64,000 bases of DNA from Clostridia bacterium (lineage in GTDB: Bacteria > Bacillota > Clostridia > Oscillospirales > QAKW01): assembly GCA_017440465.1 (NCBI GenBank), contig JAFSHF010000022.1, positions 159-64,158 of the forward strand, written 5' to 3'. Both the position numbers and the translations under genes were made by a program. Shown here piece by piece: positions 4,253 through 8,583 of this stretch (the stretch's first letter is position 1; each line of letters begins with the position of its first letter). The notes under the pieces are model-generated. The model was not told the origin of the DNA. It searched no databases and worked only from the letters and a program-made list of their open reading frames with translations.

Positions 4253-4753
4253 TTATACCACGTCCACCTGACACATTTGCATGGTTTTTAAAGCAGCTTG
4301 GTGGCTCTCGGGGGTGACACCGGCACAGCAAGCGGAATCCACCTTCACCTGCGCGTCGGGGAATTGCGCTTTGATGATGAGCGCGTTGGAAACCACGCAG
4401 ATATCGGTGCAAAGACCGATCAACTCCACGCTTTCAAGCATTTCCTCATCCCAATGGGGCCACCCGAAATTGGGCTTGTCAATAATTTTTGCGCCCTCGA
4501 CGTAAAGACCGTCGGCAATCTCCCAACCTTTTGTGCCCTTGATGCAATGCGGAACAGGAAGATGTTTGCCCTCTGTGGTATCGAGATAATTCTCAAAATG
4601 GGTATCTCTTGTAAAAATAATCTCGTCGCCGTTTTGGGTGTATTCCTGAATCTTTGCCTTGACCTTGGGGACGATGGCAACCGCCTCCTTGGTGCCGAGT
4701 ACCATATCGATAAAATCGTTTTGCATATCGACGACGATCAATGTCTTTTTCAT
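4253..4753 (-). CDS. Nicotinamidase/isochorismatase-family cysteine hydrolase
   Basis: VDMQNDF, TRDTH, PHC, GLCTDICV motifs; GGAGG RBS; own TGGTATAAT promoter at 4787-4795. Confidence 0.88.
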   Translation of the reverse strand: MKKTLIVVDMQNDFIDMVLGTKEAVAIVPKVKAKIQEYTQNGDEIIFTRDTHFENYLDTTEGKHLPVPHCIKGTKGWEIADGLYVEGAKIIDKPNFGWPHWDEEMLESVELIGLCTDICVVSNALIIKAQFPDAQVKVDSACCAGVTPESHQAALKTMQMCQVDVV

Positions 4754-4884
4754 CATCAGACCTCCAATGTGCGTTTGGTTGGATTTATTATACCATACAT
4801 CGATAAAATTTTCTACCGCTATATTAACAAAAAATCGCGTATAGATTTTAATCATCTTTTGGCTGAAAGCGGAGAATTCTTTAT

Positions 4885-4933
4885 AAAAAAGCAAAAAATC
4901 AGCACCGTAAAGGTCATCCTTTCGGTACTGATT
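4885..4933 (-). terminator. Intrinsic terminator lying inside the reading frame of the small basic ORF
   Basis: Minus strand AATCAGTACCG-AAAGG-ATGA-CCTTT-A-CGGTGCTGATT then TTTTGCTTTTTT. Confidence 0.75.
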
Positions 4934-5071
4934 CTTTTTTCTGTTATATCGTTTGCGATTTGGGCGTTTGCGTGTGATGGGGTTCAGGCTGCCCCACGTT
5001 TTTCGTCTTCTGCTGTCTGCTTTTCTCTTTTCTTTCTTTGATGGTTTTTCGTATGCAATAAACCGTTCCAT
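4886..5071 (-). CDS. Small Lys/Arg-rich protein, putative ArfA/BrfA-like ribosome rescue factor; no stop codon before the terminator
   Basis: MERFIAYEKPSKKEKRKADSRRRKTWGSLNPITRKRPNRKRYNRKK; AAAGGA RBS; immediately downstream of rtcB; end coordinate is the terminator, not a stop. Confidence 0.6.
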
Positions 5072-5114
5072 TATCATTTTTCCTTTCTTCGCGCCGATCA
5101 GCATAGGCGGCGGA

Positions 5115-6323
5115 TCACTCCGCCGCCTTAAAGTTATAAATGGGTTTGATATGGGCAATGATTTCGGCGGTAGGCTCGATATTGGCAACGATCTCATCCA
5201 TATTCTTATATGCCATGGGGGACTCATCCTGCGTATTGGTATTGACACAGGTGGTGTAGATCCCCTCCATCTGCTTTTCATACTCTTCCATCGTCAGCCG
5301 CTCAAAAGCGGCAGAACGGGACATCAAACGGCCGGCACCGTGGGGCGCGGAAAAGTTCCAATCCGCGTTTCCCTTGCCGATGCAGATCAAACTTCCGTCC
5401 CGCATATTGATGGGGATCAACAGTTTCTCCCCTGCCTTTGCGGAAACAGAGCCCTTACGGAGAATCCTCTCCTCTACATCGATATAATTATGGATCGTCT
5501 GGAAGGTTTCGATTGCCTCAAGGCCGGTCTTTTGGAGCAAGATCTCCGCCATCTTCTCGCGGTTCCGCTTGGCAAATTGCTGGCAGATATTGATATCGTG
5601 CAGGTAATCCTCCATAAACTTGCCATAGAGGAAGCAAAGTTCGCGGGGCATGGTGGGCTCTTTGGCGTCCCACTCCCTTGCCATCTGCTTTAAGGTGGAT
5701 TGGATCTCGCTTCTGCGGCCCTGCTCCTTATAGGTACGGATGATCTCATCCCGCTTTTTGAAATACTCCTCCTTGCCGAGATTCAAGTCGACGGCGATGC
5801 CTTGATAAATTTCCGCCACTTGAGTACCGAGGTTTCGGCTGCCGGAATGGATGATCAAATACTTATTTCCATCCTCATCGGCATCGATCTCGATGAAATG
5901 GTTTCCGCCGCCCAAGGTACCAAGGCTTCTCTCCAGACGCTTGGAATGCTTCAGGCTTCGGTAGCAACGAAGCTTTGTCAGATCAAAGCGCTCTATTCTC
6001 CCCTCCCAGACATTTCTGCCGCAGGGAATGGTGTGTGCCGCGGCATCGAATGCCGCAAGATCGATATCGGTCTTACCCAGATTTACGGTATACATCCCGC
6101 ACCCGATATCCACACCGACCATATTGGGAACCACCTTATCCACAATGGTCATGGTGGTACCGATGGTACAGCCCTTTCCTGCGTGCACATCGGGCATAAT
6201 GCGGATCTTTGAATTGGCAAAAGCCTCCTCATTGCATACGGTTTCGATTTGCTCGTATGCGGTGGGCTCTAATGTATCTGTATAACATATGGCAGTATTA
6301 AACTTGCCTATAATCTCAATCAT
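5115..6323 (-). CDS. rtcB: RtcB family RNA ligase (3'-phosphate/2',3'-cyclic phosphate to 5'-OH)
   Basis: MPDVHAG, VGVDIGCGM, GTLGGGNHFIE, IHSGSR, SAPHGAGR, DESPMAYK motifs. Confidence 0.95.
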   Translation of the reverse strand: MIEIIGKFNTAICYTDTLEPTAYEQIETVCNEEAFANSKIRIMPDVHAGKGCTIGTTMTIVDKVVPNMVGVDIGCGMYTVNLGKTDIDLAAFDAAAHTIPCGRNVWEGRIERFDLTKLRCYRSLKHSKRLERSLGTLGGGNHFIEIDADEDGNKYLIIHSGSRNLGTQVAEIYQGIAVDLNLGKEEYFKKRDEIIRTYKEQGRRSEIQSTLKQMAREWDAKEPTMPRELCFLYGKFMEDYLHDINICQQFAKRNREKMAEILLQKTGLEAIETFQTIHNYIDVEERILRKGSVSAKAGEKLLIPINMRDGSLICIGKGNADWNFSAPHGAGRLMSRSAAFERLTMEEYEKQMEGIYTTCVNTNTQDESPMAYKNMDEIVANIEPTAEIIAHIKPIYNFKAAE

Positions 6324-6376: not shown

Positions 6377-7876
6377 TTATGCCGCTATTTTCTCGTACCG
6401 TTCGCCGCAAAGCACCTCCAGCATGATCTGGTAAGGGGTTGCAGCGGATACATTGCCTTCTGCAATCATCGAGAACAAGCGCGGCGTGCAGCCGGAAACC
6501 AGCGCAACACCTTGTTCATTTTTAGAAACAGGCTGTTGGCGGTTGCGGCTGGCAACATTCCAGAACACCACCTCAGGAAGCTTATAACCGGCCGCCACGA
6601 ATTTTTTCTTCGCATTATTGAAGTTGGTAGTACCCGCATTTTTTACACACGCATTAAACTCCATATCGGAGATAATGATGAGTTTATCGGGCAGTTCTGA
6701 CTGTGGCAGGTTGTTGTTAACTGCCGCATTCAAAACAAGGTCGAAAACAGCTTCTATATTCGTATCTGCGATCTCATTGAAAGAGCAGATATATTGCAGC
6801 TTTTCTGCAAAAGTATCGCCTTTGATTTCAATGAGTTCCGGCTTACTTGAAAACTCAATAAAATGGTTTTTAAACACACCGGTATTATGTTCTGCAAAGT
6901 AAATGCCAAGAGATAATGCAACTGCAGCAGGAAGAGGCTTTGCATCGCAATACATCGAACCGGAAGTGTCGATAACGGCGAGTGCATTGGCCTCACTGCC
7001 AAAAGCGGGAAGTGCTTCCCAAGTAGCATTGAGGCTCTTTTTTTCTTCCGCGGTTATTTGCTTCATAAATGAATGGTGACCGTTATACCAATAAGGAGTC
7101 AAGTAGGGTTCCACAAGCTCGTAGGGGGCGAGCGTAGAGGCGTTTAACTTTGCCTCACCGGAGGACACGCTATTCAAAAAGGTGTTGTACCGTTCCGCGT
7201 CGTTGCGCGCAAAGGCGTTGCGGTATTTGAACATCGCCTTGGAGGGTTGCTTTTCGTAGTCAAAGGTATAATCCTTCTCCCGAAGGTTATTCTCGATGAT
7301 CCGAATCTGCCCACGCAGGCGGGTAAGGGTTTGGCGGTAGGTCTTATCGTCCATCCCGAGATATCGTGCGATCTTCTTTGCGGTCTTGACCGTTTCGGCA
7401 TTGGATGCATTGACCGAAGGCAGCCATTTTCCGAGCAAAGACACCTCTTCCCCGTTGTTCATCGCAGAAATATCGCGATGCAACTGTTCGCGGATCAGGG
7501 AAAGCATCTCCTTCTCAACCGGAGTGCCAAACAGGACCAGCAGGTCATCGTAGCGACCGTATTCTGCGATGTAGGCAAGGTTTTTGCGCACAGTATTGGG
7601 CTCATTTTGCGCCAACCATTTCAGAATGACGCGAAACACCTTCCGCTCGCCAAGGCCGCCCCGAATATCGCGGGCGAAGAACAGAAGCTTCATGGCAATA
7701 TCCTTATCTTCTGTATAAGCACGCATAAAACGGGCGATGATCTCATCGTCGCTTTGGCGGCGAAGGGCGCCGACGGTGGCAAACAGATCCAGGCAATCCG
7801 AGAGAGTCGATTGAAGGGTCGCCGCACCGTTTTCGGTGAAGGTTTTATTGGATTCTTGTTTTAAGTATTGCAGCAT
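6377..7876 (-). CDS. DUF2828-family TROVE/Ro60-like protein with C-terminal vWA domain
   Basis: TENGA, LDLF, RDIRGGLGER, YGRYDDL, KWLPS, MIDAS DTSGSM, IISDMEF, VFWNV, LVSG motifs; AGGAG RBS before ATG 7876. Confidence 0.88.
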   Translation of the reverse strand: MLQYLKQESNKTFTENGAATLQSTLSDCLDLFATVGALRRQSDDEIIARFMRAYTEDKDIAMKLLFFARDIRGGLGERKVFRVILKWLAQNEPNTVRKNLAYIAEYGRYDDLLVLFGTPVEKEMLSLIREQLHRDISAMNNGEEVSLLGKWLPSVNASNAETVKTAKKIARYLGMDDKTYRQTLTRLRGQIRIIENNLREKDYTFDYEKQPSKAMFKYRNAFARNDAERYNTFLNSVSSGEAKLNASTLAPYELVEPYLTPYWYNGHHSFMKQITAEEKKSLNATWEALPAFGSEANALAVIDTSGSMYCDAKPLPAAVALSLGIYFAEHNTGVFKNHFIEFSSKPELIEIKGDTFAEKLQYICSFNEIADTNIEAVFDLVLNAAVNNNLPQSELPDKLIIISDMEFNACVKNAGTTNFNNAKKKFVAAGYKLPEVVFWNVASRNRQQPVSKNEQGVALVSGCTPRLFSMIAEGNVSAATPYQIMLEVLCGERYEKIAA

Positions 7877-7913
7877 AAAGCTCACTCCTTTTCAGATAAA
7901 ATGTTAAAATAAT

Positions 7914-7993: not shown

Positions 7994-8070
7994 TGGTTTG
8001 ACCCGAGTGGGAGTCGAACCCACCGTCACGGGGATTTCGAGTCCCCACTCGGCCGCTGAGCTACGGGTCA
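7994..8070 (-). tRNA. tRNA-like element, anticodon CGA (Ser-like but short variable loop), ends AACCA
   Basis: TGACCCG TA GCTC-AGCGGCC-GAGT GGGGA-CTCGAAA-TCCCC GTGAC GGTGGG-TTCGACT-CCCACT CGGGTCA AACCA. Confidence 0.6.
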
Positions 8071-8368: not shown

Positions 8369-8448
8369 TTCGCTGCATGCGGGGAATCGAACCCCGCGCA
8401 ACTCCTGCCCCGAAAGCAAGCGCCTATCCTTAGGCCATATGCAGCGAA
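8369..8448 (-). tRNA. tRNA-like element, anticodon TCG (Arg-like), extended acceptor stem, no encoded CCA
   Basis: TTCGCTGCAT ATG GCCT-AAGGAT-AGGC G CTTGC-TTTCGGG-GCAGG AGTTGC GCGGGG-TTCGATT-CCCCGC ATGCAGCGAA. Confidence 0.6.
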
Positions 8449-8473: not shown

Positions 8474-8583
8474 CAAGACGCGTATGATTTCGCGCAAGGA
8501 TTCGAACCTTGCTAACTCTTGCTTATAAGGCAAGCGCTCCCCACGGAGCCAGCGGTCTCCCATGTGTTGCTGTTGGCGTCTTT
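8474..8583 (-). ncRNA. Array unit 5: motif stem enclosing a tRNA-like D/anticodon(TAT)/T module
   Basis: AAAGACGCCAACAGCAA...GCTC-CGTGGG-GAGC G CTTGC-CTTATAA-GCAAG AGTTA GCAAGG-TTCGAAT-CCTTGC...GCGTCTTG. Confidence 0.75.

Follow-up and report, generated by a model that had tools for sequence, protein, structure and literature searches.

Rescue of ribosomes on stop-less mRNAs is essential, and back-up systems decide survival when trans-translation, which is itself an antibiotic target, is lost or inhibited. To our knowledge, arfA and brfA are the only characterised genes with a stop-less terminator design. In ArfA (YhdL, PF03889; E. coli, beta/gamma-proteobacteria), a hairpin lies in the ORF ahead of the stop codon, so that a short basic peptide is encoded by a non-stop mRNA. 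As explained in the account of brfA in PMC6881298, a rho-independent terminator lies within the coding region of this gene, trans-translation lowers its expression, and its product recruits RF2. The same account describes a low cross-species compatibility of BrfA and ArfA, and its authors expect further, still unidentified systems. Small rescue factors arose more than once, since ArfT of Francisella (RF1- or RF2-dependent), another lineage-restricted small rescue factor covered there, has no sequence kinship to ArfA (PMC6881298). According to the survey results of PMC11633108, based on more than 15,000 genomes, ArfA and BrfA are found only in some Proteobacteria and 10 Bacillus species, while most Firmicutes are without ArfB. 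Release-factor-dependent back-ups are known from certain Proteobacteria and a few Bacillus species only, none being on record for Clostridia (PMC11633108, PMC6881298).

The DNA analysed here, called the window, is a stretch of 64,000 nucleotides from a Clostridia bacterium (contig JAFSHF010000022.1). Behind an rtcB gene on its minus strand lies a small ORF that can be compared with these systems. Like BrfA (YqkK, Bacillus subtilis, RF2-dependent) as presented in PMC6881298, it belongs to a Gram-positive host and would specify, in ~60-70 codons, a small basic protein; a rho-independent terminator lies within the coding region, the mRNA is predicted to be stop-less, and in most homologues the gene stands alone. 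In BrfA the encoded C-terminal residues past the transcript end are dispensable, as they would be here, and repression by trans-translation would by analogy be expected here as well (PMC6881298). The two differ in host range (Clostridia versus a subset of Bacillaceae), and the window family is much larger. As to kinship with BrfA, no match was obtained in NCBIfam, Pfam or PDB chains, libraries that may or may not include a BrfA entry. With ArfT, the window family shares lineage restriction, small size and the absence of ArfA kinship, its role as a rescue factor being that of a candidate.

The layout of arfA, with a hairpin ahead of the stop, is shared too. Both proteins have Tyr-x-Arg-Lys in a Lys-rich stretch (YNRKK in the window, SYMRKGK in ArfA), a likeness that is not significant. 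PF03889 matched none of 50 family members at E<=1, and hhalign gave a probability of 0.3% for the family profile against E. coli ArfA. A preliminary description of this DNA had likened the C-terminal tail to the basic tail of ArfA; given the hhalign result, the resemblance is compositional only, and by these comparisons the window family is not a member of the ArfA family.

Organisation of the locus

The coordinates of the features are given in Table 1. The rtcB gene ends with TGA at 5117-5115, and 37 nt further on the region of the small ORF is reached, with AAGGA followed by ATG 5071. An alternative ATG at 5077 is only 3 nt away from AAGGA, and its frame is equally free of stops down to 4253. 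The second Met (5071) was taken as the start because homologues align from there. When the frame is read from ATG 5071 on the minus strand, the first in-frame stop is met only at 4253.

Table 1. Features of the small ORF and its surroundings in the window
Feature	Position	Strand	Basis or remark
DUF2828 + DUF7788 protein, 502 aa, first operon gene, paired with RtcB	6377-7885	-	Pfam
tRNA-like elements (three), just 5' of the DUF2828/DUF7788-rtcB operon	7998-8070, 8371-8445, 8495-8551	-	ARAGORN, Rfam
rtcB (RNA 3'-phosphate ligase family)	5115..6323	-	PF01139, E 3.7e-58
GC-rich perfect hairpin with the rtcB stop codon in its loop	5106..5127	-	-22.1 kcal/mol, z -4.95
Shine-Dalgarno-like AAGGA	5081..5085	-	9 nt ahead of ATG 5071; sequence read
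Conserved coding part, codons 1-44, ATG 5071 to invariant Tyr42-x-Arg44	4940..5071	-	Family alignment and purifying selection
Terminator hairpin within the reading frame, codons 45-60	4893..4937	-	RNA folding; homologous hairpins covary
U-rich tract, coding strand TTTTTTGCTTTTTT, probable transcript end, no stop codon yet	4885..4898	-	Sequence read and folding
Remaining open frame past the terminator, unconserved read-through, by chance in frame with the next gene	4253..4884	-	Reading frame and variable homologue tails
Promoter-like site of the isochorismatase-family gene	4815-4787	-	TAGAAA-17-TATAAT with TG (extended -10)
Isochorismatase-family gene, 3' neighbour	4253..4756	-	PF00857, E 4.2e-24

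Within this frame, a bulged hairpin of 20 pairs is formed with a folding energy of -28.3 kcal/mol (z = -6.1), and none of 200 shuffles was as stable (fold of 4950-4870). On its 3' side it is followed by a UUUUUUGCUUUUUU tract reaching 4885. Whereas the hairpin of E. coli arfA is cut by RNase III, that of the window, with its A tract and U tract, resembles an intrinsic terminator. A simple terminator scan did not include it among its calls because of the bulge. A transcript stopping in the U tract would, as judged from the sequence, encode ~58-63 residues with zero stop codons, and the protein is rich in Lys and Arg. The preliminary description thus gave correct coordinates and read the locus correctly in these respects: a basic ORF of ~60 codons with its own ribosome-binding site, a strong terminator met before any stop, and a frame open to 4253.

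The frame beyond the terminator is not part of the functional product. Gene callers can produce a fused ORF of 274 aa or 342 aa over 4253-5077 (-). Since the small ORF is stop-less and in frame with the isochorismatase gene, such a call would mask the small gene in annotation.

Conservation of the stop-less design

Homologous loci were taken from species-representative genomes (the best 80 of 332 confirmed loci), and the window and a related genome (L002) were added. The small-protein domain is present in all 82 sources of this set. The invariant Tyr-x-Arg was used as an anchor and could be placed in 80 of the 82 rows. In 79 of these 80 anchored loci (best 80 of 332 plus two), a hairpin of -12 to -34 kcal/mol is found 0-9 nt past the anchor, followed by a T-rich tract. 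The in-frame terminator is thus conserved, and it covaries (see below). Among the 79 loci with a hairpin (best 80 of 332 plus two), the first in-frame stop falls inside the hairpin in two, in the first 8 nt of the T tract in six, and later or not at all within 260 nt in 71. In L091, the terminator is absent and the stop lies at +36.

A second hairpin finder without a T-tract rule was run on all 82 copies (again the best 80 of 332 plus two). It placed the stop inside the fold in six, complete at most 9 nt past the stem in 11 and later in 60, whereas none was seen in five. Four of these five have no stop within 400 nt, and the sequence of the fifth, L053, covers only 149 nt past the anchor. The stops called inside the hairpin of L046, L050, L042 and L034 are an artefact of a longer fold that swallowed the T tract, and the T-tract-anchored finder is therefore preferred for these loci. 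A metagenome set of 80 loci, of which three were too short, yielded 58 distinct rows, many of them of one common gut variant. Here, the first stop lies inside the hairpin in three rows, in the T tract in two, later in 33 and not within 400 nt in 19, the terminator being absent from one.

The preliminary description had allowed for a local mutation in the window, with homologues that normally stop before the hairpin. This was seen in none of the 79 genome loci and in none of the 58 metagenome copies. The stop-less design is conserved and not a local mutation. The window and its homologues hence share the trait of the ArfA/BrfA class, a conserved mRNA-truncating hairpin or terminator ahead of the stop.

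From the anchor to the hairpin end, one of 78 loci has an in-frame stop; frame +1 is interrupted in 3 of these loci and frame +2 in 43. Past the hairpin, in-frame stops are not avoided; with 0.065 per codon they are enriched relative to the other frames (0.036 and 0.037). This enrichment just past the hairpin would suit an ordinary small protein whose 3' end is overlapped by a terminator, with functional mRNAs that read through to the first stop and tmRNA being irrelevant. The same can be said of the 11 copies with a stop complete within 9 nt of the stem, of several more with one within ~15 nt, and of the T tracts, which are imperfect or weak in many copies. Nevertheless, such read-through is quite unlikely. 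The first stop has no conserved position among homologues, ranging from 27 to >400 nt past the anchor, and the tails after Tyr-x-Arg range from 9 to 81 aa (median 39.5 in 144 anchored representatives). Post-hairpin sequence is unconserved as well. Among near-identical metagenome copies, 1-nt T-tract indels change the frame that follows, so that the first stop is displaced from +99 to a position past +400, and the frame is therefore unconstrained past the T tract. Moreover, a considerable number of copies (the 19 metagenome rows and five genome copies mentioned above, L053 with its 149 nt included) have no stop in the available sequence within 400 nt, and in the window the product would be fused to the isochorismatase. 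Finally, read-through does not account for a hairpin that is structurally selected at a fixed position in the frame.

A minority of copies have their stop in the hairpin or right at the start of the T tract, and these may be produced constitutively. As a separate observation, natural 'constitutive' variants are offered by L091, L210, L186, L198 and L035, in which the stop lies inside or ahead of the hairpin, or in which the terminator is lost and the ribosome site of another gene abuts.

Selection on the hairpin and on the protein

In 77 aligned sequences, compensatory changes were found at 8 of the 9 basal pairs of the hairpin; one of these pairs, e.g., is A-U in 38 sequences and G-C in 36. 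Paired cells make up 93.9% compared to 74.6% after shuffling, double-change cells number 155 versus 45.8 in shuffles, and the observed score was reached by none of 500 shuffles, a test that is inflated by sequence relatedness. Slid controls preserve this relatedness, and they gave at most 0.16 against the observed 0.603. Because the amino acids encoded by the hairpin stretch vary jointly with the pairing partner, RNA structure outranks peptide sequence in this part of the gene. The hairpin is under strong structural selection and has a fixed place inside the frame.

A word-indexed protein search with the window ORF returned no candidates. This is a limitation of the index, since an exhaustive HMMER search recovered the family, with 1060 cluster representatives at E<=1e-3 and 60 at <=1e-10. 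Query residues 3-56 are common to all 150 listed representatives, beyond which the tails diverge and vary in length. The invariant residues of the family alignment are K9, K12, R23, W26, P31, T33, Y42 and R44, and YEKLSKK, NPVTRKP and YNRKK stand out as short family motifs. In codons 2-44 of 77 unique gene copies, differences at positions 1/2/3 amount to 0.219/0.174/0.483, with a pN/pS of 0.24 and a median dN/dS of 0.13. Based on this dN/dS and the codon-position pattern, the protein is under purifying selection. The small ORF is a genuine gene, whose family is large, unannotated and found mainly in gut Clostridia (Oscillospiraceae and relatives).

These values also bear on whether a protein gene exists at all. 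The region could instead be a leader peptide or attenuator acting on the gene that follows, or it could specify a small RNA with its 3' end at the terminator; a translating ribosome could in principle suppress termination, and the frame of the window does continue into the next gene. This is scarcely credible for 44 codons under such strong purifying selection. The downstream genes are mutually unrelated and in 40 of 75 loci convergent, and that of the window has its own promoter-like site. On the dN/dS and the unrelated or convergent downstream genes, the leader-peptide and small-RNA readings are rejected.

No family-wide match resulted from profile searches of Pfam, NCBIfam, PDB (0 at E<=10) and PHROGs, in which one of 50 members matched at E 0.007. 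The ESM Atlas neighbours are clusters of 'hypothetical protein' only, and no paper on a Clostridial rescue factor or on the family motifs was found in a full-text literature search. Two known families were considered and rejected. Identity with bS21 (PF01165) is a chance match, as only the window member gives a weak hit (E 0.014, 15.5 bits versus the 27-bit cut-off; one of 50 members). For DUF7230 (PF23876), no match was obtained in the genome of the window at E<=10 nor among the matches of the 50 members, and the likeness of 0.88 in the Atlas is sub-threshold. The AF2 model consists of two helices (12-24 and 44-56) joined by an extended conserved linker, without a globular fold (pLDDT 70.8, pTM 0.30). 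A peptide that takes up its fold on the ribosome could look like this, yet the model is not diagnostic.

Gene unit, neighbours and distribution

A Shine-Dalgarno-like site is found at the same place in all 76 homologous loci. A strict -35/-10 match lies ~30 nt upstream in 35 of the 76, and many others have an extended -10. Of 69 loci, 45 have a divergent gene on the 5' side; on the 3' side, 40 of 75 have a convergent one, which often reaches right up to the hairpin. Judged from these signals, the small gene is usually a stand-alone unit with its own promoter. In 17 of 76 loci, among them L046, L038, L032, L068, L047 and L065, a 15-nt motif, TTACAAATCGTTTAT (<=2 mismatches), was additionally seen in a constant position 70-74 nt 5' of the start codon, immediately ahead of the -35; ~1 Mb of remaining locus sequence contains only two matches. 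This motif may be an operator or an UP-like element of one subfamily.

The neighbouring proteins (66 upstream and 71 downstream scanned) are functionally unrelated and include antitoxin-like, HTH, sigma-factor and HNH genes. Neither a recurrent partner, e.g. an antitoxin, nor integrase, phage or conjugation genes were found among them. One of 50,697 phage records gave a match, on an unannotated 6-kb fragment, and none of 72,556 plasmid records did. On these counts and the lack of mobility genes nearby, mobile-element cargo is rejected as a general explanation.

Within the order, the family is carried by 35 of 301 genomes, in 22 of 152 genera, and a few genomes have 2-3 copies. In the genus to which the window belongs, none of the other genomes yielded a copy, and a sample of the phylum contains it in 9 of 401 genomes. 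Gain and loss are still implied, because the distribution is patchy. Such patchiness is odd for a housekeeping back-up and counts against reading the protein as a rescue factor.

A tmRNA-gated protein with another role is the main rival to a rescue factor. Such a non-stop gene might encode a different stress effector, for instance an inhibitor that binds ribosomes or RNA, a factor of the hibernation type or a small toxin. The evidence for the stop-less architecture fits this equally well, and the accessory-like distribution with occasional multiple copies is less typical of a housekeeping back-up. The antitoxin-like, HTH, sigma-factor and HNH neighbours and the lack of similarity to ArfA or BrfA can be read in the same way, whereas the AF2 model of two helices does not discriminate. 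Still, we regard another effector as rather unlikely. Characterised genes of this design, as far as they are treated in PMC6881298, are all rescue factors. The size, the charge and the absent globular fold match known rescue factors, no antitoxin-type partner recurs next to the gene, and phage and plasmid records contain next to no copies. A rescue factor hence remains the preferred candidate function.

The rtcB context of the window copy

In the window, the small ORF lies behind rtcB without a promoter-like site in between according to the promoter scan. Since the family's own promoter is missing from this copy and its ribosome site is weaker than that of the family, the ORF is probably co-transcribed with rtcB in this genome. 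The preliminary description had seen in this a factor recruited into an RNA-repair operon, functionally paralleling rtcB2-prfH. As outlined in PMC11741408, in the RtcB2-PrfH pair an RtcB ligase gene likewise precedes one whose product is thought to act on stalled ribosomes. A repair module of this kind, coupling repair with ribosome release, would agree with the distance of 37 nt to rtcB, with the DUF2828/DUF7788 protein in the same operon and with the tRNA-like elements upstream.

However, the linkage is not a family trait. RtcB, the DUF2828 protein and the isochorismatase were found by tblastn within ~4 kb in none of the 81 other loci. Within the genus, 3 of 29 other genomes have this RtcB, with identities of 90% and 87% for the two close ones. 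Both of these orthologues lack the small ORF and are followed by sequence unrelated to the window, and the identity with these loci ends exactly at the rtcB stop codon and the hairpin 5106-5127. Because the close orthologues have other sequence after the stop, the small ORF behind rtcB is a single local insertion. The hairpin may mark the boundary of this insertion, or it may be a processing or stabilising element. Conserved linkage to rtcB is ruled out by the 81 loci without it and by the same-genus rtcB orthologues without the ORF.

The parallel to rtcB2-prfH is only an analogy, since the RtcB of the window reaches 107.7 bits with the PrfH-linked 'release_rtcB' model TIGR03073, far short of its 271.8-bit cut-off. 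PrfH, a homologue of release factors, brings its own catalytic domain, whereas Pfam detects no RF-1/GGQ domain in the small protein. In the genome, which is 65% complete, only two RF-1 domains were found, those of RF1 and RF2. Overall, recruitment as a repair module is unlikely.

The tRNA-like elements were looked at separately. A 'tRNA-Ser(cga)' of 73 nt, which lacks the long arm that a tRNA-Ser should have, and a tRNA-Arg(tcg) were called by ARAGORN. Rfam gives the elements 33.5 bits (tRNA-Sec model, sub-cut-off), 34.9 and 32.1 (partial). These elements could be genuine tRNAs, or else tRNA-like RNAs that act as partners in a repair module of the Ro-like/RtcB type.

Proposed mechanism and implications

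The genome of the window encodes tmRNA (190 bits) and SmpB, on which a stop-less design depends, as well as RF1, RF2 and RqcH. From the sequence we infer termination at the hairpin, gating by tmRNA, binding to the ribosome and recruitment of a release factor. The mRNA would end at the intrinsic terminator inside the reading frame and have no stop codon, so that ribosomes translating it would stall at its 3' end. If a message ends within its frame, its product must go to tmRNA tagging. With working trans-translation, tmRNA-SmpB would tag the small peptide for degradation, whereas untagged peptide would build up if tmRNA were absent or saturated. On the model of ArfA and BrfA, it would then bind the vacant mRNA channel of ribosomes stalled on non-stop mRNAs and recruit a release factor, by which the stalled ribosomes would be freed. 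In the genome of the window, the cassette would have landed directly behind rtcB.

The steps of this scheme differ in probability. That a non-stop mRNA underlies expression of the small gene, with tmRNA as its gate, is, on the conserved layout, very probable. The full reading, a tmRNA-gated and release-factor-dependent rescue factor like ArfA and BrfA but unrelated in sequence, rests on analogy, and we would call it an even matter. What makes the gene a strong candidate is the stop-less layout, which is otherwise known from arfA and brfA. RqcH is another route for non-stop ribosomes in this genome and is counted against a rescue factor, as are the copies with an early stop, the imperfect T tracts and, in the window, the lack of the family's own promoter and the weaker ribosome site. 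A wider proposal is put forward tentatively: a large family of tmRNA-gated, RF-dependent rescue factors of gut Clostridia may represent yet another independent origin of the ArfA/BrfA strategy, in a group from which ArfA, BrfA and ArfB are reported to be missing; in the window it would be wired to an RtcB/Ro-like operon so that repair and release would be co-induced.

If true, a conserved stop-less gene in abundant human- and animal-gut Oscillospiraceae would fill the back-up gap of the Clostridia. It would also be the third or fourth independent example of small peptides sensing an empty mRNA channel, and a covarying terminator inside a conserved frame could serve as a general signature for such factors. 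The prediction is directly testable because cultured carriers exist (e.g. the isolates behind L022, L049 and L050).

Two further observations were made. Across the order (L105-L134), RF2 (prfB) was matched from residues 1-6 without an internal stop in 36 of the 41 genomes searched. The remaining five matches are partial (starting at residue 14 or later, or with the C-terminal part missing) and have no internal stop either. Since no internal stop occurs in the matched prfB genes, the programmed +1 frameshift usual in prfB appears to be missing in this group. Furthermore, one variant of the small gene recurs on dozens of gut metagenome contigs (L141-L185), its hairpin being identical to that of the copy in a cultured Vescimonas isolate (L022). 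As this variant is met so often, the carriers are common gut bacteria.
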